Positions 3,272-63,827 of a stretch of DNA of 64,000 nucleotides are shown here, one piece after another (within the stretch, counting starts at the first letter, position 1; the number at the start of each line of letters is the position of its first letter). Where the stretch lies: the IMG/VR virus record IMGVR_UViG_3300027608_000021, positions 1-64,000 of that record; one strand, given 5' to 3'. Position numbers and translations under genes: made by a program. The stretch comes from a virus. The notes below the pieces were generated by a model. It saw nothing but the letters and a program-made list of their open reading frames with translations. It ran no database searches and had not been told where the DNA came from.

Positions 3272-5431
3272 TCATTCTCCGATTATCCCACGCTGGGTAA
3301 GTTTACGCAAGAGGCTCGCCATCTTGACTGGCAACTCCGACGGATCGGCGCAGTCAATGAACTCTGGGTACATCTTGCGATTGTCATCGTCCGCTCCGTA
3401 CGCACCGATGCCCACACCGATGACGATGCCGCCCTCCTTGCGGATTGACTCCACAAGATCCTTGACATTCTCAGCGACCGCTCCGTCTGTGAACTGGATG
3501 ACGACGCGCTTCTTAGCATCCACCGCCTTGAGCCGCTCCCACGCCACAGCCAGACCTTCAGCCGCTGGCGTACCGCCACCGCCCCAAGTCCACATATTAG
3601 TGAGAGCCTCGTGCGTCAGAGGATCGCTGAACTTCTTGACGATCCCGACTCGCCAGTCGGAGAATGCGTGCACCTCGTGCGGGATGCTGGAGCGCGAGAG
3701 CGCAGACGACATCAACGCAGACGCTTGCAGCGCATAGTAGAGCGGTGGAATAATCCCACGCCGACCATACATCTCCTTGCGAGCAGCCCCTAGATCAAGT
3801 TTATCTTTGTGCCCATTGGCGATCCAGTCCTGCGCTAGTCGCAGTACTGAACCCTCGTGCGTGTTGAGAGCCTCTGCAAAGTCCTTGAGATATTGTGTGT
3901 GAGCCGCGCCCTCTGTCATTGAACCACTAAGATCCACCGACAGAATGAATGCGCTTCCACCGCTGCGACCAGTATCTGGCTCGCGGAATATATCCATCTT
4001 GCCAAGCGCAGCCTGTGATGCACGGCGTACATCTAGACGACCAGTCCTCTCAAACGATCGGTGCTTACGCCCCGCCTTTGTCTGAGAGAATGTTCGCATC
4101 TGCAGAGCCAGCGCATTTGCATAGCCGCCGATACCAGCAACGAGATTTGCAGCCGCTGCTTTATCCTGCTTGACTGACTCCTCCGATGAGGCGTAGTACT
4201 CGTTGCGCTTTACTGGCACAACAGTCACCGATGCTCCGTCATAGCCGACCTTGCCGCTACCGATAGAGATCTTGACCCGACCATACTCATCACCGATGCT
4301 CTCAAGATCCAAGTCCAACTTGTTGAGCGGACTGGTACTACGATTGGTCGCTGGGCTAATGTTTGTCTGTGGGGCGTAGGTGGACTGCTCCACATTGTCG
4401 CTCCATAGAGTTGCCTCTGGCTTCAGCGCATCCAACTTCTTGACGAGGCTACGAGCACGGCGACGGATTGAATCGCTTGTCGCTCCACCCACCACCTTGT
4501 CGTTCTTGCCATCCGAGTTGATTTCCCTGCGTGAGTCGCTAACTTGCGTCTCGCCTCCCATACGCTGAGAAGCCTCACCCTCGTGGCGACGCTCATCCGC
4601 ATCGTAGGTTGTGCTTTCAGTCTCCATGACTTGCGCTGTGCTTGGATTGCCGCCCGACGCTACTCCTCGTGCAGACTGCCCATTTTGAGCATCCTGATTA
4701 GCGGCACTAGGAGCCTCGCGTCCGCTCTGGGGGTCACCAGATCCCACTCCCTGACCCTTCGTGCCTCCTCGTGGCTCCTGCCCCCCTCCACGACCACCCT
4801 CCATCTGGGGAGCAGCCTCTGGATTCGCCTTTGCCTTGCGACCACGGCTGGAGATCTGCTCAGCCACCTCGTCAAAGAGTGGGAACACCCGCTCTACGAT
4901 TGGCAGCAACTCCTCTGTTGTCTTAGCGGCTCGTGCTGCATCACGCAGACCTGAGTCGCGGAACTTCTTTGCCAACTCCCGCGCTCGCGGCTTGAGAATC
5001 TGTGAGTCGTATTCATATCCTGCCACCTCTAGATACAATGACTTGATTGCTTGAATGATCCACGCTTCACCCTGAACCTGAGGGATCGTCTGATCTACAA
5101 GGTTACGCTGGAACTGCACGCGCAGACCACGCTTCTTGTGGAATGACTTGCGCTCCATACGCCCATCCTCAAGAGAGTTTAGAATCATCATAGTACCTTC
5201 ATCCAAACGGCGACCAGCCGTAGGTGAAGTGCTCGTGATATGCAGAGCCTCGTGCGCTGCTAGATCCTGAGCGTATGGCGAACCGACTGGTAGACTGACC
5301 ACGCGCTGGGGAATGTGTGTGTTGGCTCCGTGCTCAATGTCACGGATGACAACTTGATCACCACTACTCCCAGCGAATGCGTCAATGTACTGAGCCAACT
5401 GGTTGCGATTGAAGCGGTACTTTTTAGGCAT
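3272..5431 (-). CDS. VWA-domain protein (CobT/NorD-like partner of MoxR ATPase)
   Basis: N-terminal HEALH and NSLEDGRME, low-complexity linker, MIDAS DLSGSM...GGTP...FTDG. Confidence 0.85.
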   Translation of the reverse strand: MPKKYRFNRNQLAQYIDAFAGSSGDQVVIRDIEHGANTHIPQRVVSLPVGSPYAQDLAAHEALHITSTSPTAGRRLDEGTMMILNSLEDGRMERKSFHKKRGLRVQFQRNLVDQTIPQVQGEAWIIQAIKSLYLEVAGYEYDSQILKPRARELAKKFRDSGLRDAARAAKTTEELLPIVERVFPLFDEVAEQISSRGRKAKANPEAAPQMEGGRGGGQEPRGGTKGQGVGSGDPQSGREAPSAANQDAQNGQSARGVASGGNPSTAQVMETESTTYDADERRHEGEASQRMGGETQVSDSRREINSDGKNDKVVGGATSDSIRRRARSLVKKLDALKPEATLWSDNVEQSTYAPQTNISPATNRSTSPLNKLDLDLESIGDEYGRVKISIGSGKVGYDGASVTVVPVKRNEYYASSEESVKQDKAAAANLVAGIGGYANALALQMRTFSQTKAGRKHRSFERTGRLDVRRASQAALGKMDIFREPDTGRSGGSAFILSVDLSGSMTEGAAHTQYLKDFAEALNTHEGSVLRLAQDWIANGHKDKLDLGAARKEMYGRRGIIPPLYYALQASALMSSALSRSSIPHEVHAFSDWRVGIVKKFSDPLTHEALTNMWTWGGGGTPAAEGLAVAWERLKAVDAKKRVVIQFTDGAVAENVKDLVESIRKEGGIVIGVGIGAYGADDDNRKMYPEFIDCADPSELPVKMASLLRKLTQRGIIGE

Positions 5432-6419
5432 TTGCCACCTCCTCTACAACAGGCTGGCTCTCATCGTCGCCAGCGAACGCATCCAAGAACAACTTGTGCA
5501 CGACAGGACGATCCTCGCCGTTGATCTTATTAGTGAACGCGATCTCTACTGCAGACATAATGCTGATGTCTGTTGAGAGCAGCGCGATGTCAATGGCGCG
5601 GCGGGTACTAGCCGTCACGAACATTGAGAGCGGCTGCTGCTTGACCTTCTGAGTCTCTGTGCCGTCATCGTTCTTGATTGTCTCAAGGACTGGCTCACCT
5701 AGACCAGCAGCACGGCGCACGCTGTTGAATACCTCAACGATCCGTGTTGCACGAGAATGCTTGATCTTGCCAGCACGAGAGACGACTGCCGCTTCCTTCT
5801 CAGGATTCTCTAGCCCAAGATACGACACCTCAGCCACAATGAAGCGGTCAAGGGTTGCCTCGTTGAGAATGCGAGCACCAGCGTACTGCCCACTATCGGC
5901 AGGGTTCGCCGTTGCCACCAACATAAACGCTGGATGCGGCTCAATGTACTCTGCACCATCTGGCTTCTCATAGATATTGAGTCGGTACTCCGTTGCCAAG
6001 AAATCGTGCAAGCGCATCAGCGTTCGCTCGTCGGCAGCGTTGATCTCGTCAAGAACAATGATCCCACCATTACGCAGAGCCGTAGGGAGCGCACCATCAC
6101 GCCACTCCACAGCGATGCCGCCATTACCAGATACAGGGATCGGCATACCAATCAACTGATCCGTCGTCGTGCCTTCAGCCAGCGAGACAACATAGACAGG
6201 CAGCCCCATCTTGTTGGCGAACCAACGGACAGCAGCATTCTTACCAGTCCCAGTATGCCCACTCAGCAGTACAGGACGCTTGTGCTTGAACCCAAGAGCG
6301 AGAGCCGTAGCCTCCTCGCCCTGAATCTCATAGTCCTCAGGCTTAGGGATTAGATGCTCCCCACCTGAAATCTGTGGCTTCTCCAACGAGATGCCGTGAA
6401 TCTGTACTTCATTTCCCAT
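5424..6419 (-). CDS. MoxR/CbbQ/CobS-family AAA+ ATPase
   Basis: Walker A GHTGTGKN, Walker B VLDEIN, ATANP, LNEATLDRF. Confidence 0.9.
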   Translation of the reverse strand: MGNEVQIHGISLEKPQISGGEHLIPKPEDYEIQGEEATALALGFKHKRPVLLSGHTGTGKNAAVRWFANKMGLPVYVVSLAEGTTTDQLIGMPIPVSGNGGIAVEWRDGALPTALRNGGIIVLDEINAADERTLMRLHDFLATEYRLNIYEKPDGAEYIEPHPAFMLVATANPADSGQYAGARILNEATLDRFIVAEVSYLGLENPEKEAAVVSRAGKIKHSRATRIVEVFNSVRRAAGLGEPVLETIKNDDGTETQKVKQQPLSMFVTASTRRAIDIALLSTDISIMSAVEIAFTNKINGEDRPVVHKLFLDAFAGDDESQPVVEEVANA

Positions 6420-6524
6420 ACTCCACCTCCTCCATACTGCGGGGCAGCCGAATGACTACCCTCCCAACATATACCCTGAACCCTAACAGACCTGATTTCC
6501 ATTTCCTCTTTACCTTTCCATTAC

Positions 6525-6837
6525 TAACGGCTGGTTTGTGGGGGGTGCACTCTTACTACAAAGTCCCCACCGACCAATCTTGAGGCTAATGAACCAAAGG
6601 TTCGCCCCAGCAGAAGTAGTCTGTGCATAGCATCTGCCACCTTGCTATTGGAATGACCCCCTTTGTTGGCGACCTTTCACCGAGAGCGGCGCATCTGGCT
6701 TATCTAGAATCCACCAGACACTATTGCTCAGGGTTACCACGAGTCCCCAGAGGCTCATCCCCAGACATAGAGAACCTTACGATCCTCTGGTGAGTGGGGT
6801 GTTCTAAGTCCCACTCACCAGAGATCCCATCAGCCCT
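6525..6837 (-). ncRNA. candidate large structured ncRNA (~310 nt)
   Basis: No credible ORF; conserved at 63460-63770 with compensatory and G-U-consistent changes in several stems; box promoter upstream. Confidence 0.7.
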
Positions 6838-6964
6838 ACCATATACCCTAAACCCTAACATACCTATTCGTTGCTACCATATACCCTAAACCCTAACACA
6901 CCGCTATGACCCTACAACCTAACACACCTGCGATCTGCGATTTATTCACAGATTATAAATATTT

Positions 6965-7162
6965 CTAAACCTTTAGTCCGTAACGCCTTAGATCTTTCTT
7001 TAGATTCTGCACGGCTCGCCCATCGCTAGGCGTGAACGACGAGAATACCTTTGCTCCAGTCGGAGAGACCCACGACAGGTGTGTGTTCTTTCTCTGCTCC
7101 ACGCGCCAGCCCTGAGCCACGGCAATATCAAACAAATCCCTGTAAACCTTTGGCACTCTCAT
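6965..7162 (-). CDS. HicA-like (dsRBD-fold) small protein
   Basis: GW-V...H...SPTG..V..S.TPSD.RA..N...LRR.G pattern of phage HicA-like proteins; conserved in copy 2. Confidence 0.6.
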   Translation of the reverse strand: MRVPKVYRDLFDIAVAQGWRVEQRKNTHLSWVSPTGAKVFSSFTPSDGRAVQNLKKDLRRYGLKV

Positions 7163-7299
7163 TTGATAGCCGCCCAAATGATCACACCAAAAGTAATGAT
7201 GGCGCAGACCAGAATCGTTCCGTCCTGCCGTGCTCGTGTAGTACGAGCCTCCCTCACATAATATGACTCAATGTTGCGTACCTTCTTGCGCGTCCTCAT
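7159..7299 (-). CDS. 46-aa membrane protein
   Basis: Read manually: MRTRKK...LVCAIITFGVIIWAAIK; GGAGG SD, ATGA overlaps at both ends. Confidence 0.6.
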   Translation of the reverse strand: MRTRKKVRNIESYYVREARTTRARQDGTILVCAIITFGVIIWAAIK

Positions 7300-7661
7300 T
7301 CCAAACCTCCTTGCTCAATGTCCAAGTAGCGGGACTTCTTGCCCACTACGAAATCTAGTTGTGTCTGCAACCGCTTTGCCTCATCTATCTTTAGACGGAT
7401 CGGCATCAAGTCATCAGCAAGATCACGATTGTCTTGTGGGCTTGAGACCCAGATCGTCACGAGTGCATCCTGCCCAAGAGCATTCTGCTCGTCAAAGTCT
7501 GCGTCCACCCAGAGCGAGACCTGACCTACCACACCAACGAACGGATCGCTGTGTGTCGGTACTTCCTCACCAAACGAGAACACATTCTTATCGTTCTCTT
7601 GTCGCTCAATCGTTGCGTGAACTGATTCCTGAATAACTAGCGGGAAATCCTTTGCATTCAT
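7296..7661 (-). CDS. hypothetical protein
   Basis: GGAGG SD; operon packing. Confidence 0.7.
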   Translation of the reverse strand: MNAKDFPLVIQESVHATIERQENDKNVFSFGEEVPTHSDPFVGVVGQVSLWVDADFDEQNALGQDALVTIWVSSPQDNRDLADDLMPIRLKIDEAKRLQTQLDFVVGKKSRYLDIEQGGLE

Positions 7662-7663
7662 AC

Positions 7664-8419
7664 TCAACCTCCGATGCTCATAAAGCCTTCGTCATTCCAA
7701 AGGCGCATTCCGTTGTCGTAATATTCCTTGCTGATCACTCGCTTAGGGTCGTCCTCCCAGAATGGATCAACCTCAATGGTCTCCCCATCTTGGACATCAG
7801 CCTCCCAATACCCTTCGTCCGTGCACTTGCCGCCGATAAAGGTGGACTCGCCGATGAATCCCATCCCCATCTCTGCAAACTTGATATGCACCACGAGATC
7901 AGGATACCTCTCAGACAGAGCCTGAACAATACGCATCGGTGGAGACCACGCCGTATCAAATGATACGAACGCAGATTTGTTGTGTGCCCTAGCATTCACA
8001 TCATCTCCGCTGACGCTCCACTTTGTTCCCCAGTTGGCGATATTCCAGTTCCACCAGAATAGTGGATGCTCTCCAACCTTGATGCCCAAGTGATCAGGAC
8101 AACGCTCTACAGCAGACCCGATCTCGCTGGCAAATGATCCGTCAATCTTGGCGTGATCCTTGATCGGTGGCTTGCCATTGACCAGCCACTCCCCATTAGG
8201 AGCCTCGCCGACATAGACAGGCACGCACTCGCAACCGACATAGCCGTGCTGCGATGGCTCACCACGATAGATTTTCTGATCGTCTGGATCAGATGGCGGT
8301 GGCACAATCTTAGCGAAGTCAAAGACGGAATGCTCCGACTTGATCCCCTCCATTACTTGAGCGATTCTGTCGCTGCTACCAGCCGTTATTGTGATCTCGT
8401 TGCCGCACCAGTTAGGCAT
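7664..8419 (-). CDS. DUF1281/YubB ferredoxin-like family protein
   Basis: MPNWC.N, WN..NWGTKW and FDTAWSPP signatures. Confidence 0.8.
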   Translation of the reverse strand: MPNWCGNEITITAGSSDRIAQVMEGIKSEHSVFDFAKIVPPPSDPDDQKIYRGEPSQHGYVGCECVPVYVGEAPNGEWLVNGKPPIKDHAKIDGSFASEIGSAVERCPDHLGIKVGEHPLFWWNWNIANWGTKWSVSGDDVNARAHNKSAFVSFDTAWSPPMRIVQALSERYPDLVVHIKFAEMGMGFIGESTFIGGKCTDEGYWEADVQDGETIEVDPFWEDDPKRVISKEYYDNGMRLWNDEGFMSIGG

Positions 8420-8616
8420 TAGAACCTCCCCTTATTGCTATAATGATTGCGAAGTGTCTGATCAACCTTGTCGCCGATCAGCAGGATTACACCAAGCAGA
8501 CCAAGACCAGCCAACCCTCCGACGATTACGCCGAAAGCGTTGTTGCCGTTCAGACCTGCGATGAAACCACCTCCGATAATAAACCCGAATGCTACTAGCG
8601 TGTCCTTCGTATCCAT
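8419..8616 (-). CDS. small two-TM membrane protein
   Basis: Gly-rich hydrophobic segments; box+SD upstream. Confidence 0.7.
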   Translation of the reverse strand: MDTKDTLVAFGFIIGGGFIAGLNGNNAFGVIVGGLAGLGLLGVILLIGDKVDQTLRNHYSNKGRF

Positions 8617-8683
8617 CTCAAACCTCCTTCTCTACTTGATGAGGGGACTTCCCTCACCATATACCCTAAACCCTAACATACCT

Positions 8684-9094
8684 CTATTCCCAAACATACT
8701 CTAAGTTCGTCGGCTCAGTCCAACCAAACTTGTAATAGTAGTCAGGGTCTTTACGGAGCAGATTGCTACGATGCGACTCGTGAAAGTCCTCGCGTCCTAA
8801 CCACGGCGGCACTACCATAGCCGTCTGGTAGTCGCGGTACGCCAGAATCTTGGCGAAGCAAGTGTCCTTGTACCCTCGCTCAATCCACTCAGTACAAATA
8901 CTCAAGCCGTAGACCACAAGGCAGTTCTCATACCCACGCCACATCTTTGCAGCGGGATGATTCACCCACCCCTTAGTCTCACCATTTAGAGCCTTGAGCA
9001 GTTGCAGCACCTCAACGCGCTGCTTGCCTAGTCTCTGTCGGTCAAGAACCTTCGCCGACTTTGTGAAATCGTTGTACGGCAGAAATGTTTGCAT
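8684..9094 (-). CDS. pyrimidine-dimer DNA glycosylase-like (DenV / MSMEG_6728 family)
   Basis: MQTFLPY, RLGKQRVE, NHPA..MWRGY, HRSNLLRKDP. Confidence 0.8.
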   Translation of the reverse strand: MQTFLPYNDFTKSAKVLDRQRLGKQRVEVLQLLKALNGETKGWVNHPAAKMWRGYENCLVVYGLSICTEWIERGYKDTCFAKILAYRDYQTAMVVPPWLGREDFHESHRSNLLRKDPDYYYKFGWTEPTNLEYVWE

Positions 9095-9510
9095 CAGTCC
9101 CACCACCAGATAACTTCATCGCCACGAATCTCAAACTCGTCCGCTCCAAGATTTGCACCTCGTAGCGCAGCGAGAGTCAGCGTCTTTGAGTCTCCGTCAG
9201 GCGTAGAGGCACACAGACCCTCAACGCTAAGCCGTGCGTCCTTGCGCCCTTGACCGACAACATACCCGATGAAGTGGACATCTAGTCCCTGCTCCATTAG
9301 TTTGCCAGCCTCAATCAGAAGCATCGGCAGACCAATAAAACTATTCCATCGTGTAATATCTGCCAACTCAGGCGCAGCCTCAATCGCAGCGATCAAATCG
9401 TCCACCGATACATTTGAGAACCTTCGCAGCCCACCACTCCAGTCGCCGTCAAAGTTCCCGACGAGCGCATCCTCAATACGAGAGACCGCCAAATCCTTAT
9501 CCTCAGACAT
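9094..9510 (-). CDS. hypothetical protein
   Basis: SD; C-terminal WWWD; coupled to next gene. Confidence 0.7.
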   Translation of the reverse strand: MSEDKDLAVSRIEDALVGNFDGDWSGGLRRFSNVSVDDLIAAIEAAPELADITRWNSFIGLPMLLIEAGKLMEQGLDVHFIGYVVGQGRKDARLSVEGLCASTPDGDSKTLTLAALRGANLGADEFEIRGDEVIWWWD

Positions 9511-9712
9511 TATCCACCTCCTCGTCTAAATCCTCAAACCCAGAGACCAGAGCCTCCCCGACAATCTGTCGTGGATCGGCATCGTAAACTACATTAGCCG
9601 CTCGGTCAATAACCTTGTCGTCCTCTTGTAGCACGATAACATCTAGCCCCTCAATATCTGTCGTTGCCTCAACGACTAGACCACCACGAATCTGAATCAC
9701 TACTACTGGCAT
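9503..9712 (-). CDS. hypothetical protein
   Basis: Box+SD upstream. Confidence 0.7.
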   Translation of the reverse strand: MPVVVIQIRGGLVVEATTDIEGLDVIVLQEDDKVIDRAANVVYDADPRQIVGEALVSGFEDLDEEVDNV

Positions 9713-9756
9713 CTTGTTCCCTCCTCTCTACTATATACCCTAGAACCTAACATACC

Positions 9757-10086
9757 TTATTGGTGCTGCTCTGGCAGACAAGCCGCGCAGTACGGAACAC
9801 CTATATCGGTATTCAGTTGCTTAGACGCTGGGTCGTACCAAATAATATCGTCCTCAACCACAATGCCGTCGCACTCTGAGCAGTTCTCTACATCGTCAAA
9901 CTTCTCAGCCCTGCGATCCTCGCAGCCCCGACAATAAACCAGCACCACGCCAGACCAGTTCTTGTTGCTGTAAAACCACTCGCCGTTGTTATCATTGGCT
10001 TGTAGCGACTCGCCGCATTGGTCGCACCTTGTTGGCTCCTCGTCCATCAAAATCTTTCTATTCATCTGATCACTCATCGCCGACAT
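9757..10086 (-). CDS. Cys-rich Zn-binding protein
   Basis: Four CxxC pairs; stop abuts box. Confidence 0.7.
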   Translation of the reverse strand: MSAMSDQMNRKILMDEEPTRCDQCGESLQANDNNGEWFYSNKNWSGVVLVYCRGCEDRRAEKFDDVENCSECDGIVVEDDIIWYDPASKQLNTDIGVPYCAACLPEQHQ

Positions 10087-10088
10087 AT

Positions 10089-10292
10089 CTACTCCTCGTC
10101 GTAGCCGTCAAACCACGACCCATATTGCTCTGTATGCTTCTTACCAGCCTCGCTGGTCGTCGTGCTGCTGCTCGTGTCGGGGTCGGAGCACCAATGCTGA
10201 ACCTGTTCCAGCGTCTTACCTGTTGCGAGCACCTTGCTAGGATGACCCGCAAAATAAGTCCGTACCACCTTGTAAGTCTTGTCGTCAGACAT
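10089..10292 (-). CDS. hypothetical protein
   Basis: SD; operon packing. Confidence 0.7.
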   Translation of the reverse strand: MSDDKTYKVVRTYFAGHPSKVLATGKTLEQVQHWCSDPDTSSSTTTSEAGKKHTEQYGSWFDGYDEE

Positions 10293-10506
10293 TTGCTCCC
10301 TCCTTCCCACCCGCTAGGGTCAGCCAGTCAATCTTACCTGCCCCGAACAGGATTGCCTTTGGGTCAATATTGTATGACTGAGCCACATACTGAGCCATAC
10401 CTTCCTCCGATCCGCAGTCGCTACAAATCATCGTCTTGTTGTCGTAGCGAGATAGTGCTCCCCTGATTGCGTCAAACTGCTTACCGCAGCCACCACACTC
10501 CTCCAT
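10285..10506 (-). CDS. small Zn-finger protein
   Basis: CxxC...ALSRYDN..ICSDCG; box+SD. Confidence 0.7.
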   Translation of the reverse strand: MEECGGCGKQFDAIRGALSRYDNKTMICSDCGSEEGMAQYVAQSYNIDPKAILFGAGKIDWLTLAGGKEGANV

Positions 10507-10563
10507 TACCGCACCTCCTTCTTTGCTATGCCTTCCTACCATATACCCTAAACCCTAACATAC

Positions 10564-10917
10564 CTATTTGTCTACACTCTTGACTGATCCGCATCGGTCG
10601 CATCGGTAAGTCTTGCCATCCCACTTGTTTGGTTCAGGCTCAACCTCTATGCCCTCCGTGCTCGTCGTCGTGAAGCCGTCGCTGTCTGGCGTGTTGCCAC
10701 ACTCGCAGACAAGGAAGTCCCCGACAAACTTGATCTCGTGCTCGTGGTGTTCGTAGGCTCGTCCTACCTGTACCACGCTGATCTCCTCGTCCCACCAGTC
10801 CTCAACCGCCATCTCTTGCGCTATGGCAAGAGCCTTCTTGCGCGCCTCGTCCGCGTTGTCCGCTTCTACTCTGATCTCAACCTCGCATACCTTGCGTACC
10901 TCTGTCTCAAAAATCAT
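10564..10917 (-). CDS. Zn-ribbon hypothetical protein
   Basis: CECGN...CDRCG; stop abuts box. Confidence 0.7.
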   Translation of the reverse strand: MIFETEVRKVCEVEIRVEADNADEARKKALAIAQEMAVEDWWDEEISVVQVGRAYEHHEHEIKFVGDFLVCECGNTPDSDGFTTTSTEGIEVEPEPNKWDGKTYRCDRCGSVKSVDK

Positions 10918-11189
10918 TACTGAACCTCCTCGTCAATAAATCCTTCCAGTCGGAAGTTGTCCACGATAATAAACGCTGGCACTTCTTTCCCATAGATGCG
11001 GTGATTCACCCCATCAGGGAGCGGGATGCCCTGCTCGTTGTCTCCGTTGCGTACCGCCTCAATCGCAGCCTTCGCCACGCTGATCATTGAGCGAGGCGGC
11101 GCGGGATAAATGTTGCTCGTCAGATGCCACTCCAACGCTACATCCTCGCTCGCTGCTCCGCGCATACCCATCAGTCCTGCGTATCCCAT
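10917..11189 (-). CDS. hypothetical protein
   Basis: Box+SD upstream. Confidence 0.75.
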   Translation of the reverse strand: MGYAGLMGMRGAASEDVALEWHLTSNIYPAPPRSMISVAKAAIEAVRNGDNEQGIPLPDGVNHRIYGKEVPAFIIVDNFRLEGFIDEEVQ

Positions 11190-11244
11190 CTCAGACCTCC
11201 TTCTTGCTATGCCTTCCTATCTTATACCCTAAACCCTAACATAC

Positions 11245-11577
11245 CTACTGGTCTCGCCACTCCCCGCCCTTGTCCTCCTCGTCCGCACCCTGCGGGATCA
11301 AGTCCGTGAACCCTGCGTTCGGGTCGTCGTGATTCGTGCTCACCGCATTGACGAACCTGAGACCGCACGAGTCGTCGTACCACTTTCTAATCGTGGTCAG
11401 CATCTCGTCAGCCGTCATCTCGCCAGCCGAAATGAGCGGGTTATACCCATAGCCCTTCATCTGTACCATCTGCTCGTCATCCAAGAGCACATAAATCTTG
11501 TGGCAAGTATCAAACGCGATCCCCTTCGCACCAAGTAGCGCGCCTTCTACCTTGCTCCACATCTCTGCTGTTGCCAT
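11245..11577 (-). CDS. hypothetical protein (single-gene cassette)
   Basis: Flanked by identical ~62-bp repeats. Confidence 0.8.
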   Translation of the reverse strand: MATAEMWSKVEGALLGAKGIAFDTCHKIYVLLDDEQMVQMKGYGYNPLISAGEMTADEMLTTIRKWYDDSCGLRFVNAVSTNHDDPNAGFTDLIPQGADEEDKGGEWRDQ

Positions 11578-11632
11578 CTCAGACCTCCTTCTTGCTATGC
11601 CTTCCTATCTTATACCCTAAACCCTAACATAC

Positions 11633-11935
11633 CTACCCTTCGTACCACTCCACATCTGAAAGTTCGCCGTCGTAGAGCATCTGCTCAACGCGAGCGAGAT
11701 CCATCCCTCGTACCACCTGAGCGAACGCCTCGTCGCAGTCCAAGCAGTAGAGTTCCTCAGCCGTAGTCTGGTCAGGAAATAGATCCTCGTGGAAATCCTG
11801 TGCCCAGAACGCTCGTCCCCCATCCTCCAAAGGTTTTAGGTTAGCGAGCACCTTCGCCGTGATCGTGATGCCACGAGCGTCAATCTCCGCATCCTTCGCC
11901 TCGTCGCAAGTGTGTCTGTACATACCTTCTGCCAT
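11633..11935 (-). CDS. hypothetical protein (single-gene cassette)
   Basis: Box+SD upstream, TAG fused to next box. Confidence 0.75.
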   Translation of the reverse strand: MAEGMYRHTCDEAKDAEIDARGITITAKVLANLKPLEDGGRAFWAQDFHEDLFPDQTTAEELYCLDCDEAFAQVVRGMDLARVEQMLYDGELSDVEWYEG

Positions 11936-11990
11936 AGAGCACCTCCTTCTTGCTATGCCTTCCTATCTTATACCCTAAACCCTAACATAC

Positions 11991-12248
11991 CTATCCTTCG
12001 TACCGCAAGATATTCTCAGCCGTGTGTGCTGCGAGTCGCTCGTGGTCGCCACACTCACAAGGAGCGCAGTTGAGGCAGTACACCTTCGCACCCTCAGGAA
12101 CCGCACTCTCGTAGTCCTCCCAATCCAGTACGCCCCACTCGTTCTCCCTGCGTGGTCGGCTGTCGCTGTAAACCCAGAACCCTGCTACCATCTCGTCAGG
12201 GTAGTAGACGATCACCTTACAATCTCTACAAGTCCTTGCCTCGTACAT
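11991..12248 (-). CDS. Cys-rich hypothetical protein (cassette)
   Basis: CxxC motifs; box+SD; TAG fused to next box. Confidence 0.75.
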   Translation of the reverse strand: MYEARTCRDCKVIVYYPDEMVAGFWVYSDSRPRRENEWGVLDWEDYESAVPEGAKVYCLNCAPCECGDHERLAAHTAENILRYEG

Positions 12249-12304
12249 CTCAGACCTCCTTCGCTATGCCTTCCTACCATATACCCTAAACCCTAACATA
12301 CCTG

Positions 12305-12721
12305 TTAGGCAAATACCAGTTCGCCGAACATCGCGTACTGAAAGATAATATCCGCACCTGTCGCGTCCACATCTATCTCCCCGCCGTATGCGTCAAACGA
12401 GATTGTGTGAGCGTACTTGCTACTGAGCACGGCACACACCGCCTTCTCCAAGTTCTCAATCGTGATCTCAAACCAGTCGTTGTTGTCCCTCGTAGGTTCG
12501 CCGTTGTCCTCGTCCTCCTTGATTCTGACGAGCACCTCGTCGCGTGGAATATCCCGAAGTTTGTCGTGATCAGGGTCGTCAAACTTAGCGTCGGGATTCA
12601 CATACCACCGCTTCCACTTGTAGTCAGTACACTCTGCCCAATACCCTGTACCGCCCTCAATCGCACCGACTACGATATTCACCGCGTCGTTCGGTTCCAG
12701 TACCACCTGTGTGATTTTCAT
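12305..12721 (-). CDS. conserved phage hypothetical protein (cassette)
   Basis: GG.GYWA...DA..AD.I.Q.A.FGE.VF pattern; box+SD. Confidence 0.75.
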   Translation of the reverse strand: MKITQVVLEPNDAVNIVVGAIEGGTGYWAECTDYKWKRWYVNPDAKFDDPDHDKLRDIPRDEVLVRIKEDEDNGEPTRDNNDWFEITIENLEKAVCAVLSSKYAHTISFDAYGGEIDVDATGADIIFQYAMFGELVFA

Positions 12722-12761
12722 ATGCCCTCCTTCCTATTCTATACCCTAAACCCTAACATAC

Positions 12762-13031
12762 CTACTTGCCCTGAGGGAACCGCTCCACGAGCCACTCGTA
12801 CGCCTTCTGAGCGTCCTCGTCCCCTGCTGCCATCGCGTTGCCCAGATGCCCTGCGATATTTATGACCGATCCCAATAGAGCACGAGCGTTGTCGCGCTCC
12901 TCACGGCTGACCTGACCCACGATATTCTCCCCAAAGAGAGCCGCCATCGTCGCGTACCCCTGCTTGTCGGGAGTCATATCTATGAACCCTGCGTTGCGCT
13001 CCTTGATTGCTGCGTCCTTCATAGCACCCAT
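12762..13031 (-). CDS. hypothetical protein (cassette)
   Basis: Box+SD; TAG fused to next box. Confidence 0.75.
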   Translation of the reverse strand: MGAMKDAAIKERNAGFIDMTPDKQGYATMAALFGENIVGQVSREERDNARALLGSVINIAGHLGNAMAAGDEDAQKAYEWLVERFPQGK

Positions 13032-13113
13032 ATCTCCACCTCCTTCTACTCTATACCCTAAACCCTAACATAGCGGTCGGGGGAGACCAGTCGCCTAATC
13101 TCCCCCGATACCC

Positions 13114-13530
13114 CTAGTCCATTCGTGATCGGAACCCTACACCCTTGTAGCCCTTGCTCGTGAGGTAGCGTGCCACCGCTCCTGCTGCCGCCTCCTTGCG
13201 AGAGAGAGACTGCCCGAATCCTGAGACCCAGAGATCTACCCCGCCACCATACGCCTTGTGAGCAGCAAAGATCCCGCCCCTAGCCCCTTCATAGTTCCTG
13301 AGGATCGCCTTGCCAAGAGCCGTATTGAGCGGCACATTGACCCACGCGAATCCACACGCTCCCCCTGAGACATCCCAGCGTTGCCCAGTCGCCGAATCTA
13401 CGACAACCATAGGATCGGGATTGTCTCCCAGTCCTGCGGCACAACCCTGAGCGATCGCCTCAATGAGATCCTGCTCAATGATGAGCCGCTGAGCCTTCGC
13501 CTCTCTGATCTTATCCTTCACATAACCCAT
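13114..13530 (-). CDS. conserved phage hypothetical protein (cassette)
   Basis: GACGFAWV...QS..RKEA.A.A pattern; GGAGG SD before ATG at 13530. Confidence 0.75.
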   Translation of the reverse strand: MGYVKDKIREAKAQRLIIEQDLIEAIAQGCAAGLGDNPDPMVVVDSATGQRWDVSGGACGFAWVNVPLNTALGKAILRNYEGARGGIFAAHKAYGGGVDLWVSGFGQSLSRKEAAAGAVARYLTSKGYKGVGFRSRMD

Positions 13531-13679
13531 ACCAGTACCTCCTACGCTATCGGGATCAGATTGTCTGACCCTCACCATATACCCTAAACCCTAACATACC
13601 TCTTTACCCTATAAATATTGTATAAATAATACCCTTATATACCCCTAAAAATCGCCCGAAATACCCTATTTATATCAAC

Positions 13680-13856
13680 TCACAGGGGAGTAGCCTTAGC
13701 CCTACGCGCTTCCACTCCCTGCTGTTGTACCTTCTTAGCGTGAGCCTTCCATAGTAGTTCCTGATGGAGTCGGATCGTACCCTTCCCAGTCATCAGGTGC
13801 TGAAATGAGCGTGATTCTACCTTCTTGTCTCTGTTGCTCTTGCTGTATTCCATCAT
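13680..13856 (-). CDS. 58-aa basic hypothetical protein (cassette)
   Basis: Read manually MMEYSKS...KATPL; box+GGAGG SD. Confidence 0.6.
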   Translation of the reverse strand: MMEYSKSNRDKKVESRSFQHLMTGKGTIRLHQELLWKAHAKKVQQQGVEARRAKATPL

Positions 13857-13998
13857 TACCTCCTACTCTATACCCTAGACCCTAACATAGCAGTCTAGGC
13901 TCAATAATCTAGGAGAGTCGCGCCGCGTGGTTATTTGTGCCACCTCGTGCCACTTCCCTCCACTATATACCCTAAACCCTAACATACCGCCTCGTGCC

Positions 13999-14012
13999 AG
14001 AACATCTGTTCT
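13999..14012. promoter_or_regulatory. LexA/SOS-type box AGAAC-ATCT-GTTCT
   Basis: GAAC-N4-GTTC palindrome. Confidence 0.55.
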
Positions 14013-14157
14013 ATTTGGTCTGACCCTAGAACCTAACACACCTGCGCGGATCGGGGTATTTGGATACTCCCCCCTTGTATCTGATGTGTGAGGATGTAGG
14101 GTCAGAGGAGAGAGGCACACGCTTTCCCACCCTGACCCTAGAACCTAACACATCCAA

Positions 14158-14173
14158 TAGAACAGGTGTTCTA
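14158..14173. promoter_or_regulatory. LexA/SOS-type box TAGAAC-AGGT-GTTCTA
   Basis: GAAC-N4-GTTC palindrome. Confidence 0.6.
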
Positions 14174-14268
14174 CTCCTACTGACCCTAAACCCTAACACA
14201 TCCCTACAAAGAAGGATAGGCAGAGCAGGGGTAGGAGACCCTCGCTCTGCCTAGTATCTAGTGTATCC

Positions 14269-14433
14269 CTAGTATCCTGCCTCTTTGAGGAAGTCTAGGA
14301 ACCTTGTGGTTGCCGCCGATTTTGTGTAGAAGTAATAGACCTGCTTCACATAGTCTCCCTGATCGGAGATGTATGTTAGTACCCAAGAACCATTGAGATT
14401 CTTGTATACGCTGATGTCTCTCTTGTATGCCAT
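14269..14433 (-). CDS. 54-aa hypothetical protein (cassette)
   Basis: Read manually MAYKRDISVY...KEAGY; box+SD, downstream hairpin 14217-14253. Confidence 0.65.
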   Translation of the reverse strand: MAYKRDISVYKNLNGSWVLTYISDQGDYVKQVYYFYTKSAATTRFLDFLKEAGY

Positions 14434-14480
14434 CTTGTATCTCCTCTCTCTCCTACTCTATACCCTAGATCCTAACAGAC

Positions 14481-14720
14481 CTAGAAAGCATCCCCGCAGC
14501 AGCAATCTGCCCAGTCTACGCTACCGACAGGGCAGGTTGCGAGGTGCTGCTCTTTGAGAGGGTATGAGGTGTCGTGCTCCTTATCAAAGCCCACCTTTGC
14601 CCCAAGCCAAGCGTAGTCCTCGTGCTCTTGTGCGAGTTTGGCAAACTTCTGCTGATCGTTAGCAGCAGCAGCCTTCTCTGCTTCCTCGCGGATCTGCTCC
14701 AACTTCTGCTCAATGGTCAT
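14481..14720 (-). CDS. hypothetical protein (cassette)
   Basis: GGAGG SD before ATG 14720; TAG fused to next box. Confidence 0.7.
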   Translation of the reverse strand: MTIEQKLEQIREEAEKAAAANDQQKFAKLAQEHEDYAWLGAKVGFDKEHDTSYPLKEQHLATCPVGSVDWADCCCGDAF

Positions 14721-14872
14721 CCTTGTGCCTCCTATCTTGTAGAGGGTATCTCCCTCAACATATACCCTAAACCCTAACATAGCCACTTGTACAGACTGAC
14801 CCTAAAACCTAACACATCTAGCCCCAATAGTTAGGGGCGGGGTGTCTTGCCGACCTTCCCCGCCCCTTGTTG

Positions 14873-15169
14873 TTAGGCTCGCGCTACGCCTTGCCGTACC
14901 ACGCTCTGATGGCGGCTGGTTGTGTGGCTGTACTTTTCCTCTGGCACTACCCACGCGCCGCGCTTTGTGTACCACGCGATCGGTGTGGCGTAAGAGTAGA
15001 CAACATATGCCAACTCTCCCGCCGTTGCGTCTGCTAGGTACAACTCTGCTGCCCTGCCGTAGATTTGCCCTGTACCGCTTGGGCTGCGGGTTGCCCAGAT
15101 GCTGTTGCCTCTAAACTCTGCCCGCTGTGCCACCTTACCGATGGCATCGTGCCGTGATGTGTATCCCAT
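14873..15169 (-). CDS. conserved phage hypothetical protein (cassette)
   Basis: VVYSY.TPIAW...YS.TTS.HQ pattern; box+SD; hairpin 14833-14867. Confidence 0.75.
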   Translation of the reverse strand: MGYTSRHDAIGKVAQRAEFRGNSIWATRSPSGTGQIYGRAAELYLADATAGELAYVVYSYATPIAWYTKRGAWVVPEEKYSHTTSRHQSVVRQGVARA

Positions 15170-15371
15170 TTGTTGCCTCCTACTTTGTGGAGAGATTGTC
15201 TCTCCCTACCATATACCCTAGACCCTAACATACCCGCCAGCCCCGCTATTGTCTGGCTCGTGCCTCTTGTACTTAGTCCATAGATCCTCCTTCTCTTTCT
15301 TTCCTACCATATACCCTAAATCCTAACAGAGCAACCTGCCCCTAAACCCTAACACATCTAATAGATAAAAG

Positions 15372-15592
15372 CAAGAGGAGCCAACCCCGTCGGGCTGGCT
15401 CCTCTTGATCGGGCTGATTCTGGCTCCCCCCGTCGGGATAACCCTCCTCGCCGCCCTACCGCTCCCAGATTTACAGAGTCTGTCCTAGCGGTCATCGCTC
15501 CACCTGCATCTCTTTACCCGCATTTATGGCTGCGGCAACTGATCGCTCGTCTAACGCCTCACCATTGGTTGAGAGTTCCTAGGATCTCTCTC
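15372..15592 (-). ncRNA. candidate small RNA cassette (no ORF)
   Basis: Between type-A box 15594 and terminator hairpin 15372-15406; several stems, no SD/ORF. Confidence 0.4.
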
Positions 15593-15767
15593 CCTACCAT
15601 ATACCCTAGATCCTAACAGACCTAGGCTCTATGATGGTTGAGAGGGATTTTATCCCCTCTCTTCCTACTATATACCCTAAACCCTAACATACCGAGATGA
15701 CCCTAGACCCTAACACACCAAAAATAGGCAGAGACTGGCAGCCCCTGCCAGCCCCTGCCCATCTCTG

Positions 15768-16106
15768 CTAGATCGTGATCGTCTCGCTCTTGCGGAAATC
15801 GTAGATCGCAATCTGCCGATTTTCTGCCCCTAGATTGAGCGCGTCCCTCTTGTTGCGTACGATTGTCGTCGGATCTAGATGGATGGTATCCCCATCAACC
15901 CACGCCCCTAGATGCCTCGTGCCAAATCTGTGCCAGATCAGGAACATCGCCTGACGGATCGCCGTCTCTGTTGCTGTAATCGGGAGACGGATCGCCGTCT
16001 CTGCTGTTGAGCCTACGGCATAGCCCCGCTTTAGCGAGACCGCTACCATCGTGCGGCTCCTGATTGTGGCTCCCCCATCCTTGAGGATCGTCTCTCTGAG
16101 TCCCAT
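15768..16106 (-). CDS. conserved phage hypothetical protein (cassette)
   Basis: GAW.D...LD...A..LG..N.Q.AIYD pattern; box+SD. Confidence 0.75.
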   Translation of the reverse strand: MGLRETILKDGGATIRSRTMVAVSLKRGYAVGSTAETAIRLPITATETAIRQAMFLIWHRFGTRHLGAWVDGDTIHLDPTTIVRNKRDALNLGAENRQIAIYDFRKSETITI

Positions 16107-16273
16107 ATCTTGTGCCTCCTACTATTGGAGAGGATCTCTCTCCTACCATATACCCTAAACCCTAACAGACCAACCTGCCCCTAAACCCTAACACACCTAA
16201 AAAAATACAAAGAAATAGTATCGGCGTGTTAGGGTGTAGGGTCAGGGGGGAGACCCAGCCTCCCCCCGCCCCG

Positions 16274-16447
16274 CTAGAATACCTGCTCTGGCAGATCGTA
16301 TTCTTTGTTTGCTGCGCGCATCTCGGCGTAGATCCGCTGCGCCTCGGCGTGATCCCCACGCGCTTCTGCTTCGCGCATCTTCTTGAGATACGGCGCTCGT
16401 GCCGCTGACCCCTCTTCCAGGAGTCTGATGTCGTCTCCTAGACTCAT
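16274..16447 (-). CDS. 57-aa helical hypothetical protein (cassette)
   Basis: Read manually MSLGDDIRLL...PEQVF; box+GGAGG SD. Confidence 0.65.
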   Translation of the reverse strand: MSLGDDIRLLEEGSAARAPYLKKMREAEARGDHAEAQRIYAEMRAANKEYDLPEQVF

Positions 16448-16634
16448 CTTCTACCTCCTACTTTACCAGGGCTGTTGCCCCTACCATATACCCTAAACCC
16501 TAACATACCGCCCTGACCCTAGACCCTAACACACCGCATATTCAGAAAAACGAAAAGAGGCTGACCCTAGACCCTAACACATCGCTTATTCAGAAAAACG
16601 GAAAGAGGGGAGCGACCCCCCTTCCCGTCTCTCT

Positions 16635-16829
16635 TTAGTACCAGCCCTTGATGGATTCTCCTCGTGCGATCTTTGCCTTTGCCACCCCTAGTTTGAGTGC
16701 CGCCAGAGTCTGCTCTGGATTTGCGAGGATTGCGATTGCGATCTGCTTTGCGATCTTTTCGTTGCTTTGTGCGAGTTCTACGACTGCGAGGATTGCTTGC
16801 TTCTCCTCGGTGCTGAATACTCCGTTCAT
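16635..16829 (-). CDS. hypothetical protein (cassette)
   Basis: Box+SD. Confidence 0.7.
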   Translation of the reverse strand: MNGVFSTEEKQAILAVVELAQSNEKIAKQIAIAILANPEQTLAALKLGVAKAKIARGESIKGWY

Positions 16830-16901
16830 TTGACCCTCCTACTTTTTGCCTTCTTGTGAGGGAGCGACCCTCTACCTTATTCCCTCAACCCTAACATACC
16901 G

Positions 16902-16919
16902 ATAGAACAGATGTTCTAT
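16902..16919. promoter_or_regulatory. LexA/SOS-type box ATAGAAC-AGAT-GTTCTAT
   Basis: 7-bp arms; sits between type B and type A boxes. Confidence 0.6.
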
Positions 16920-17053
16920 AGACTCTGCCCCTAAACCCTAACACACCGAAAGAAAAGAGCCGCCAGAACCCTGACCCTAGACCCTAACACATCGCATAAA
17001 TAAAAAGAAAAGGGAGCAGCAGGGGGGGGTGATCCCCTGCCGCTCCCTTGTTG

Positions 17054-17296
17054 TTAGGCTGCGATTTTCTTGAGAATCAGCCTCTTGGCTCCGAAATCGT
17101 ACCAGCCGTCGCCTCGTGCTTGATCATTTACCAAGAGCCGCCCTGCGATAATCAGAGCCTTGCTCTTGTACTCACCCGCTGCCGCTGCTGCTGCCACTCT
17201 GAGCACCTGCTCTGATGGAGCCGCATTTGTGAGAGCCCTGCCGTGTCGGGCACTCTTGCCAAACCCAGCCCATCGCTTCATCCCCCAGACTTTCAT
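17054..17296 (-). CDS. hypothetical protein (cassette)
   Basis: Box+SD; hairpin 17010-17048. Confidence 0.7.
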   Translation of the reverse strand: MKVWGMKRWAGFGKSARHGRALTNAAPSEQVLRVAAAAAAGEYKSKALIIAGRLLVNDQARGDGWYDFGAKRLILKKIAA

Positions 17297-17465
17297 CCTG
17301 TACCTCCTACCTTGTGGAGTCTCTTGTTGAGCCTCCTACCATATACCCTAAATCCTAACAGAGCAACCCGACCCTAAACCCTAACACACCTGACCTGACC
17401 CTAGAACCTAACACACCGCCCAAATAAAAAAGGGGAGAGAGTCCCTTGACCCTCTCCCCTGATTC

Positions 17466-17660
17466 TTATAGTGCGCGGTTGTCGGTGCTCCAAGCGAGCC
17501 GTGCGATCTCTTGAGAGATTGCCGAGAGTTCAGCCTCTAGAGCCTCTCGCTCGTTTCGCTCTTTTGTCTCTGCTGCGATCCTTCGCTTTGTCTGCTCTAG
17601 CGTGTTTCTTGACGATGCTAGCCGATTCTTGAGATCCTGAATCGTCTCAAAGTGCTTCAT
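17466..17660 (-). CDS. coiled-coil hypothetical protein (cassette)
   Basis: Box+SD; hairpin 17430-17460 plus T-run. Confidence 0.7.
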   Translation of the reverse strand: MKHFETIQDLKNRLASSRNTLEQTKRRIAAETKERNEREALEAELSAISQEIARLAWSTDNRAL

Positions 17661-17763
17661 CTCTTGATCCTCCTACTATCTGGAGAGCGTCTGCTCTCCT
17701 ACCTTATACCCTAAACCCTAACAGAGCGACCTGACCCTAAACCCTAACACACCGAATAAGAGC

Positions 17764-17828: not shown

Positions 17829-18473
17829 CTAGTCTCGGCTGCTGTGTGGATCGCGTCCCTCCGTGCGGCGCATCGCACGGCTGACTGCCATATGGATCGC
17901 CTCTACGCTGAAGGTCTCTCCCTGCTCAGCGAGTAGAGCCTGAATCTTTTTGGCGTAGCCGTAATGCTTGCCGCCTACCTGCTGAAGCAGCACGAGCACG
18001 CGCTGATCGTTCAGCGAGCCTCGCTCAGCGTTAGCCGCGCCTTGCGCTGCTTTCTCTGAGCCGTGAGCACGGGCCGCCGAAGCGATCCGCGCCGCTGCTA
18101 CCTGCTCGCCAAGCGTACCCTCAGCGATCCAGATCTCAGCCTGAGCACGCTGCTCAGCCGTGAGGCTATTGAGATAGGCTCGCTCATCCTTGACGATGAC
18201 CTCGCCAATCGTGAGCCCATCCTCGCTGCCGATCTTGGCGGAGAGATACGCGAACCCGATCTCTCGCTGCTTGCCGCCATCGGTGATGCGCTCAGCCCTA
18301 AGAGCAGCCCGCGCCGCTCTAATCGCTGAAGCAGGATCTAGAGCAGGATTCTCAAGAGCCAAGAGCGCAGCCTCTTGGATCAGATCCTCCTGAGAGGCTC
18401 CGCCGTTGAGCCCTCCGAAATATTTCGCAGCCTCTACCTTGAGGCTCTTGAGCAAATCCTGAGCGTCTCTCAT
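17829..18473 (-). CDS. divergent sigma-70-family-like transcription factor
   Basis: AAKY...EDLIQEA.L (region 2), LSAKIGSEDGLTIGEVI (region 3.2-like), LNSLTAEQR (4.1-like), C-terminal HTH-like helix pair. Confidence 0.6.
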   Translation of the reverse strand: MRDAQDLLKSLKVEAAKYFGGLNGGASQEDLIQEAALLALENPALDPASAIRAARAALRAERITDGGKQREIGFAYLSAKIGSEDGLTIGEVIVKDERAYLNSLTAEQRAQAEIWIAEGTLGEQVAAARIASAARAHGSEKAAQGAANAERGSLNDQRVLVLLQQVGGKHYGYAKKIQALLAEQGETFSVEAIHMAVSRAMRRTEGRDPHSSRD

Positions 18474-19541: not shown

Positions 19542-20091
19542 TGAGACGATCGTTTCAAAAACCCAGGGTCAGCTCCGTCGTGGGCGACCATCTGGGGCAC
19601 GAAATAAGCCAAAGCTTGATACCCACCAGCTCAACGAGCTGAAGGACAAGATTGGCAGGTTCCTCCCGCAGGCAGACTGGAACTACCTCGCAGGCGTGCT
19701 CGAGGGTACGGATAAGCCAATTCTTGAAAAAGATTTGGACATCTTCCTAACCCTCCAGCTTAAAGCCCTCTTGCCACAACTGGCGCAAGAGATTGAGGGT
19801 GGACAGCTGACAAAGGAGGCGACACAGCGCTCGAGCACCATCAAAGAACTTCTCGCGTTGCGATTCCAAATGGAAAAGCATGAGAAGGGCGAAGATACGC
19901 CGAATGCCGTGACGTTTATACAAAATGTCTTTGAATCCCGTGGAATTGATCAAGCCCGTCTCGCAACTCTCGCAGGAGGATTTGGCGGGTCTATTGAAGG
20001 TATCTCCCGCCCTGTACCTAGAACTGCTGACGCAGACGAAGGGACAGCCGACGATACTGGAACCCTACCAAGTGAACTTCCTGAACGATAG
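19534..20091 (+). CDS. putative terminase small subunit
   Basis: GRPSGARNK N-terminus; directly upstream of TerL. Confidence 0.65.
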   Translation: MSDETIVSKTQGQLRRGRPSGARNKPKLDTHQLNELKDKIGRFLPQADWNYLAGVLEGTDKPILEKDLDIFLTLQLKALLPQLAQEIEGGQLTKEATQRSSTIKELLALRFQMEKHEKGEDTPNAVTFIQNVFESRGIDQARLATLAGGFGGSIEGISRPVPRTADADEGTADDTGTLPSELPER

Positions 20092-63410: not shown

Positions 63411-63442
63411 CCTTCCTATCCTCTAGCCGAAACCATTTCATA
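63411..63442 (-). promoter_or_regulatory. variant box TGAAATGGTTTCGGCTAGAGGATAG
   Basis: Occupies position orthologous to box at 6468. Confidence 0.7.
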
Positions 63443-63459
63443 GATCTCCATCCTTACTT

Positions 63460-63770
63460 GTTGCTGGTTTGTGAGGGGTGCACTCTTACTACAAAGTCCT
63501 CACCGACCAATCTTGAGGCATATGAACCAAAGGTTCGCCTCAGCAGAAGTGTGTCCGTTAGTAGCGTCTGCCACCTCGCTATTGGTGCGACCCCTTTTAT
63601 TGGAGACCTTTCACCGAGAGCGGCGCATCTGGCTTATCTAGAATCCACCAGATACTATTGCTCAGGGTTACCACGAGTCCCAAAAGGATCGCACCCAGAC
63701 AGAGAACCTTACGATTCTCTGGCGAGTGGGGTGTTCTAAGTCCCACTCACCAGAGACCATATTGTCTCCT
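63460..63770 (-). ncRNA. candidate structured ncRNA (copy 2)
   Basis: Homolog of 6525-6837 with compensatory changes. Confidence 0.7.
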
Positions 63771-63796
63771 ACCCTCTAGCCGAAAGTGTTTCACAT
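63767..63796 (-). promoter_or_regulatory. variant box TGAAACACTTTCGGCTAGAGGGTAG
   Basis: Orthologous to box at 6837. Confidence 0.7.
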
Positions 63797-63827
63797 ATCC
63801 CTTTCGGTAAAGAGATTATAAATATTT

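Follow-up and report, generated by a model that had tools for sequence, protein, structure and literature searches.

A 64,000-nt stretch (the window; positions 1 to 64,000 of the 83,149-bp virus record IMGVR_UViG_3300027608_000021) contains two noncoding stretches (i.e., 6842-6488 and 63775-63433, minus strand) in which every reading frame carries stops in all six homologs examined. Each stretch lies between a small gene and a two-gene operon encoding a MoxR-type AAA+ ATPase and a VWA protein. The MoxR protein matches Pfam AAA_5 (8e-20) and phrog_249, and its best NCBIfam match is CobS (TIGR01650; 4e-21), although the score is below the equivalog cutoff (75.6 against 558.6 bits). The VWA protein (719 aa in the first operon and 732 aa in the second) has only VWA/VWA_CoxE matches in Pfam for the 719-aa form, no PDB sequence relative, and no recognized RNA-binding domain, while the Atlas places it among phage CobT_C/VWA clusters. 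The features of the two loci (copies A and B) are as follows.

3272-5431 (minus): 719-aa VWA protein, CobT-like, with a basic disordered linker (pI 8.8).
5424-6419 (minus): MoxR-type AAA+ ATPase, CobS-like.
6443-6460 (minus): small leader hairpin before the moxR Shine-Dalgarno sequence (GGUAG...CUGCC).
6467-6487 (minus): box copy between the RNA and moxR.
6529-6780 (minus): copy A, RNA species of about 252 nt (helices 1 to 10), with its 5' end at about 6780 and its 3' end at about 6529.
6609-6614 (minus): predicted pseudoknot 3' strand, UCUGCU, 12 nt after hairpin 6.
6633-6638 (minus): predicted pseudoknot 5' strand, GGCAGA, in the 10-nt loop of hairpin 6.
6675-6741 (minus): invariant internal loop, CGUGGUAA (6734-6741) opposite GAAA (6675-6678), enclosing helices 4 and 5.
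6785-6823 (minus): 14-bp 5' hairpin of the primary transcript.
6835-6897 (minus): two tandem copies of the unit-heading box of strain A (cores at 6839-6859 and 6877-6897), directly 5' of the RNA and probably a promoter.
60221-63389 (minus): copy B, moxR (62397-63389) and vwa (60221-62419).
63414-63432 (minus): copy B, box between the RNA and moxR.
63462-63716 (minus): copy B, RNA core.
63717-63785 (minus): copy B, 5' hairpin and the box of strain B (core at 63767-63785).

The sequence-only reading had described a noncoding RNA of about 310 nt present in two copies. The two copies are orthologous loci of two related genomes of about 57 kb and not paralogs of one genome; the reading of two copies in one phage is wrong. 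Record positions 1-27885 and 57209-83149 are colinear in 15 blocks (67 to 86% identity) at an offset of about 55 to 57 kb. Contigs of the closest MoxR relatives are 57 to 58 kb long, and one of them (G001; 57,186 bp, with direct terminal repeats) carries exactly one copy of the RNA. The record therefore represents about 1.45 genome lengths of two related strains joined by assembly. The genome is that of a siphovirus with terminase, portal, and tape-measure genes, and it is far from any cultured phage. Between A and B, the RNA core (88% identity) is no better conserved than moxR (89% at the nucleotide level), but it is better conserved than vwa (77%) and than the spacers and boxes, which are not alignable.

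It was also noted from the sequence alone that each copy has its own box upstream. This is right, but the boxes are genome-wide unit headers that are not private to the RNA. The box of strain A (core GTTAGGGTTTAGGGTATATGG) occurs 29 times at five or fewer mismatches, with 28 copies on the minus strand, and all lie between 6467 and 17722. The box of strain B (TTTCGGCTAGAGGGTAGGA) occurs 18 times between 63414 and 73003, all on the minus strand. Nearly every copy is followed by a short hairpin, a Shine-Dalgarno sequence, and a start codon, and the leader hairpin before moxR covaries among the loci (GGTAG/CTACC in locus L009; GGCAG/CTGCC in loci L013 and L062; L numbers denote the collected loci). 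Related phages (L009/L013, L008, and L010) have yet other boxes. The boxes of strains A and B share their 3' end (TA-N-A-N-GGTAGGAG) and differ upstream, a pattern expected of promoters read by a strain-specific factor. A gene at the head of the array (17829-18473; 214 aa) gave an Atlas lead to clusters carrying Sigma70_r4 or r2 (score, 0.92), whereas Pfam, PHROGs, NCBIfam, and PDB gave no match. Other neighboring proteins (including those of 573, 718, and 70 aa, the last encoded upstream at 6965-7177) had no Pfam, NCBIfam, or PDB match, and PHROGs gave only families of unknown function, for the 70-aa protein among others.

The compensatory changes noted between the two copies are present in the sequence. 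GTGGGG/CCCCAC becomes GTGAGG/CCTCAC (pair 219:245 of alignment A5, GC to AU), and TAGCA/TGCTA becomes TAGCG/CGCTA (pair 142:153), while the single changes give G-U only on the minus strand (pairs 179:203 and 66:92, and pair 27:53 of alignment A3). We extended the comparison to six sequences (A, B, L006 [nearly identical to A], L013, L009, and L062), which gave a consensus of 79 pairs in 10 helices over a 257-column core. In this consensus, 96.4% of the cells are paired, and 19 pairs have changes on both sides. Controls in which the partner was slid by 1 to 3 columns gave 3 to 5 such pairs and 36 to 48% pairing, and none of 500 shuffles reached the observed values. Covariation is concentrated in the long closing stem (helix 2; 8 of 11 pairs) and in hairpin 6 (5 of 6 pairs), whereas helices 4, 5, and 7 to 10 are almost invariant in sequence and therefore uninformative. 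Five G-U pairs are invariant and several more are partial; on the plus strand they would be A-C, so the minus strand is the RNA strand, as had been proposed. Single-sequence folds agree (z scores of -3.7 and -6.4 on the minus strand against -2.8 on the plus strand). The 14-bp 5' hairpin is real, with 3 of 14 pairs compensatory in L013, but it is missing, together with about 20 further bases, in L009 and L062, in which the RNA core begins within a few bases of the box.

The fold has a long closing stem (helices 1 to 3) around a conserved asymmetric internal loop and helices 4 and 5, followed by hairpin 6 and a nearly invariant 3' domain (helices 7 to 10). A covariance model of the core scored 296.8 bits for copy A and 288.1 bits for copy B. 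Run without filters over 14 other MoxR loci (74,780 nt), its best hit was L008 2105-2309, which is weak (12.9 bits; rough E value of 0.013, or 0.005 in a smaller search) but lies exactly in the box-flanked noncoding stretch upstream of the L008 moxR ortholog (MoxR 68% identical). L008 keeps helices 2 to 4 and 6 and the internal loop (CGCGGUAG opposite CGAAAA), and it carries a 112-nt insert where the sequence described here has 42 nt. With L008 added, 23 pairs are compensatory and 96.2% of 502 cells pair, although that alignment is fitted to the model and so leans toward it.

Of the two loop complementarities suggested as pseudoknots from the sequence alone, GCAGA/UCUGC is supported. In the six close sequences, the last 6 nt of the 10-nt loop of hairpin 6 (GGCAGA) are complementary to UCUGCU, 12 nt downstream. 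In L008 the loop is again 10 nt, the linker is again 12 nt, and the pairing is GUCUA with UAGAC; 3 of the 6 pseudoknot pairs change on both sides, and 97% of the cells pair. A descriptor scan then found the same motif (i.e., a hairpin with a 10-nt loop, AGKUR plus 5 nt, whose last 5 to 6 nt pair 11 to 13 nt downstream, 5' of a moxR ortholog) in L010 (MoxR 53% identical), with a 7-bp stem, the loop AGGUGCACAU, and CACAU pairing with AUGUG 13 nt downstream. Shuffled sequence gave 0.175 hits per 7,160 nt even with a looser 4-bp stem. All five pseudoknot positions thus differ among three lineages while staying complementary, and the first five loop bases stay AGKUR. However, the L008 and L010 pseudoknots were found after we had looked for them, and since MAFFT placed L010 out of register, its pseudoknot was read from the descriptor scan and not counted on an alignment. 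The motif was not found in L011, L064, L051, or L069. Both sides of the second proposed loop pairing (AGAAC/GUUCU) are invariant and hence uninformative.

The known distribution of the RNA is narrow. A blastn search of 50,697 phage records under distant settings found no homolog, and an exact 20-mer search of viral contigs found 1 locus. Searches of viral contigs with the MoxR protein or alignment gave 2 and 8 loci, of which only 2 are close. Among 56 loci from metagenome contigs, L006, L009, and L013 carry the RNA, L007 is cut off before it, L008 and L010 are distant forms, and L011 and L012 remain unresolved. Genome contigs gave nothing with the MoxR alignment or with an RNA pattern. A degenerate junction pattern in viral contigs gave six stretches, five of which are chance (covariance model scores of 8.6 bits or less), and an nhmmer search with alignment A3 of all 69 loci found only the known copies. 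L011 (MoxR 51% identical) has a 790-nt structured stretch upstream (z score of -9.2) that ends in a strong terminator before the operon, but homology could not be shown. Comparisons of L008, L010, and L011 by blastn and MAFFT gave only short colinear words, and words shared between the sequence described here and L011 or L010 (e.g., around UCUGCUGGGG and UAAGAGUG) could not be shown to be significant.

No known RNA family fits. None of the 4227 Rfam 15 models matched at gathering score in the 64-kb window. On the 801-nt region 6300-7100, only three junk hairpin hits appeared at E values up to 10 (16 to 20 bits against cutoffs of 34 to 83), and seven homologous loci gave nothing at E values up to 0.1; the only Rfam match elsewhere was a tRNA in the unrelated locus L043. 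ARAGORN found no tRNA or tmRNA gene in the window. The fold, which is multibranched with 10 helices and a pseudoknot, is not the rod-like duplex of 6S RNA. In literature searches, limited to result listings and without supplements, no phage RNA linked to MoxR/VWA or CobS/CobT was found. We conclude that this is the gene of a structured noncoding RNA of a new family not in Rfam.

The RNA is present in lake metatranscriptomes. Of 24 public runs, 14 DNA runs hold 65 to 93% of the sampled words of 6300-7200, while six metatranscriptome runs hold only 19 to 31%, about the share that the RNA makes up. In four RNA runs from four studies (X15 to X18), all four have a contig over the core: 6559-6776 in X15 (depth of 24, against 15 for moxR), 6529-6780 in X16 (depth of 22, flanks 0), 6544-6775 in X17 (depth of 333, flanks 5 to 10), and 6544-6779 in X18 (depth of 381 to 382, flanks 5 to 18). 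The core is about 20 to 80 times deeper than the flanks in two runs but only 1.6 times the depth of moxR in X15. Positions 6461-6511 are empty in all four runs; this stretch and 7226-7327, which also lacks RNA contigs, serve only as an internal sign that the libraries are not DNA dominated. Adapter letters directly abut 6780 (X16) and 6544 (X17), so fragments end there. The species is therefore about 235 to 252 nt, starts 5 nt after the 5' hairpin, and excludes that hairpin, although contig depth is a poor measure and contigs show neither strand nor true ends. In X16, another contig (6770-6920; depth of 17.5) crosses the hairpin and both boxes, indicating that longer precursors or read-through transcripts exist. 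The four variant positions in the RNA contigs are structure neutral (three unpaired columns and one GC-to-GU change). The presence of the RNA in many lake data sets shows that this phage group is ecologically common.

We infer that the box is a promoter for a phage factor, that transcription runs on into moxR-vwa, and that the RNA is released by cleavage after the 5' hairpin and by trimming to the base of helix 9. No sigma-70 promoter or intrinsic terminator was found around the RNA (6300-7300). Our best, still tentative, suggestion is that the RNA then acts with the adjoining CobS-like MoxR/CobT-like VWA pair, either as a bound partner (scaffold, cofactor, or client) or as a regulator. The homologous RNA lies at the same place in L008 although the gene upstream is different (a Cys-rich protein) and ends in a terminator, and the hairpin-pseudoknot signature recurs upstream of moxR in L010. 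The distant MoxR loci L041 and L051 have unstructured upstream stretches (z scores of about -1) that hold small ORFs. Furthermore, the VWA proteins of the RNA-bearing loci are basic (pI 8.7 to 9.3), while five distant CobT-like relatives without such an RNA are acidic (pI 4.5 to 5.6); this contrast is not phylogenetically independent, and L011 is intermediate (pI 6.3). The functional link rests on synteny among related phages, which shared ancestry alone could explain, and only five distinct close sequences plus two distant ones were available. In addition, a box with its own leader hairpin and Shine-Dalgarno sequence separates the RNA from moxR, so the two may be independent units. A more specific form, in which the RNA, the ATPase, and the VWA protein constitute one ribonucleoprotein machine (i.e., a phage AAA+/MIDAS remodeler that needs, or acts on, a dedicated structured RNA), is possible but somewhat less likely; it would give the widespread but unexplained phage CobS/CobT genes an RNA-linked function. 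The RNA offers a handle on what these very common gene pairs do and on whether AAA+/VWA remodelers outside the Ro60 and midasin paradigms work with RNA.

The suggested mode of action is most like that of a Y RNA beside bacterial Ro60 (Rsr), in which a structured RNA appears to be encoded next to, and co-oriented with, a protein having a C-terminal VWA/MIDAS domain (PMC7824862). The RNA gene described here is likewise adjacent to that of a VWA protein. However, the protein has no TROVE domain and is paired with a MoxR ATPase, no Y RNA model matches, and the 3' domain forms its own hairpins so that the two ends do not pair. The phi29 packaging RNA, a phage-encoded structured RNA that probably works as part of an ATPase machine, is a second analogy, but no pRNA model matches, and the terminase (19925-21346) and portal lie 13 kb away (at positions 19.9 to 23 kb) on the other strand. 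ROOL and GOLLD are also intricately folded phage-borne RNAs of unknown function; they are larger, are not tied to MoxR-VWA genes, and gave no model match.

Among the alternatives, an independent early phage RNA for host takeover or counterdefense (e.g., a stable decoy or sponge for a host protein, nuclease, or defense sensor), with the position next to moxR being only inherited gene order, is less likely than the suggested link but survives best. The RNA lies in an array of small early-type units, both it and moxR have their own boxes, and it is far deeper than neighboring mRNAs in two runs. Its 3' domain is almost invariant (14 of 91 columns vary, against 57 of 148 in domain 1), which suggests a sequence-specific partner, and no antisense target was found in the phage genome (best E value, 0.25). 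Nevertheless, it has no similarity to any host RNA or known decoy in our searches, no target can be named because the host is unknown, and the RNA-moxR adjacency persists in L008 and L010 despite their different upstream contexts.

A cis-acting leader of the moxR-vwa operon (i.e., a riboswitch-like sensor or a processing and stability element whose cleaved-off form is the abundant species) is somewhat less likely still. The RNA is always 5' of moxR and co-oriented with it, with no terminator between, and a conserved 5' core (domain 1 plus the pseudoknot, as an aptamer) with a variable 3' part (as an expression platform) across the sequence described here, L008, and L010 is a riboswitch-like pattern. 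However, neither the cobalamin family nor any other riboswitch family matched, even at E values up to 10, and there is no terminator or Shine-Dalgarno-sequestering helix. A 40-nt variable spacer, a full box, and a separate leader hairpin lie between the RNA and the moxR Shine-Dalgarno sequence, and the RNA-to-moxR depth ratio ranges from 1.6 to about 76 across runs.

A self-cleaving ribozyme that frees itself from the 5' hairpin and leader, with the fold 3' of the cut as in HDV-like or glmS ribozymes, is very unlikely. Contig ends in four runs cluster at 6775-6780, with an adapter abutting 6780, which is 5 nt 3' of the hairpin base and not inside a long duplex, and the core is compact and pseudoknotted, but no self-cleaving ribozyme family matches, L009 and L062 start at the box with no leader to remove, and a host endonuclease explains the end equally well. 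Finally, a DNA-level element (e.g., a replication origin or a protein-binding array) or chance structure in a conserved spacer is highly improbable, even though the sequences are few and all from related phages, given the compensatory changes with G-U pairs on one strand only, the pseudoknot kept through three sequences, and the discrete RNA species in four runs.

The 83-kb record is about 1.45 genome lengths, and in it two related ~57-kb strains (67-86% identical, colinear) are joined head to tail (positions 1-27885 of the window against 57209-83149 of the record, the latter lying partly beyond the window). Anything seen twice in this window is a pair of orthologs. The two strains carry 28 and 18 co-oriented copies, respectively, of a strain-specific box of 25 to 30 nt (6467-17722 [strand A] and 63414-64000, the latter continuing to 73003 in the record), each of which heads a small unit (i.e., box, hairpin, Shine-Dalgarno sequence, and start codon). 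The boxes of the two strains differ in their upstream half and share TA-N-A-N-GGTAGGAG, and many boxes are preceded by a partial box ending in TCAGG after a T-run. In L009, a locus carrying a homolog of the structured RNA, three tandem inverted copies of the first half of that locus's own box (CTTACACACTTCC-type words) are present upstream of the box of the RNA (about positions 1005-1140); the box region therefore forms a long inverted repeat there. The following features of the window accompany the box array or lie near the RNA:

6965-7177, minus strand: conserved 70-aa protein directly upstream of the RNA
8684-9106, minus strand: pyrimidine-dimer DNA glycosylase
about 15570-15680, minus strand: stretch matched by a 109-nt RNA contig
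17829-18473, minus strand: 214-aa protein heading the box array, with no box of its own

The 109-nt RNA contig exhibited the highest depth of all (839 and 44.5 in the metatranscriptome runs X18 and X16, respectively). The stretch that it matches starts near the 3' edge of the box at 15668-15688 and contains a hairpin, the whole next box (15597-15617), and a second hairpin. The inner box can pair with the sequence before it. This stretch may represent a second small abundant RNA or an attenuator. The Atlas neighbors of the 214-aa protein include clusters with Sigma70_r4 (51% of members) and Sigma70_r2 (69%) at a score of 0.92, although no Pfam, PHROG, NCBIfam, or PDB match was found.

The CobT-like VWA proteins of the RNA-bearing phages (3272-5431 and 60221-62419 in the window; 3450-5600 in L008, a more distant locus) have a long, disordered, basic linker (pI of the middle part, 9.1 to 9.4, with RGG-like runs in strain A), while distant CobT-like proteins have a strongly acidic linker (4.1 to 5.2). 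In L011, another moxR-vwa locus, two ORF-poor stretches of about 800 nt each (1-985 and 1420-2210) begin just after a 31-nt direct repeat (52-82 and 1469-1499; 97% identical). The second stretch folds with a z-score of -9.2, is rich in GNRA-type loops, and ends in a long terminator before a small ORF plus moxR-vwa. These stretches may be large RNAs of another family.

The 70-aa protein appears HicA-like on visual inspection, but it matches only PHROGs of unknown function (phrog_2089, 7e-10). The pyrimidine-dimer DNA glycosylase (Pfam Pyr_excise, 3e-25) lies among the small early units.
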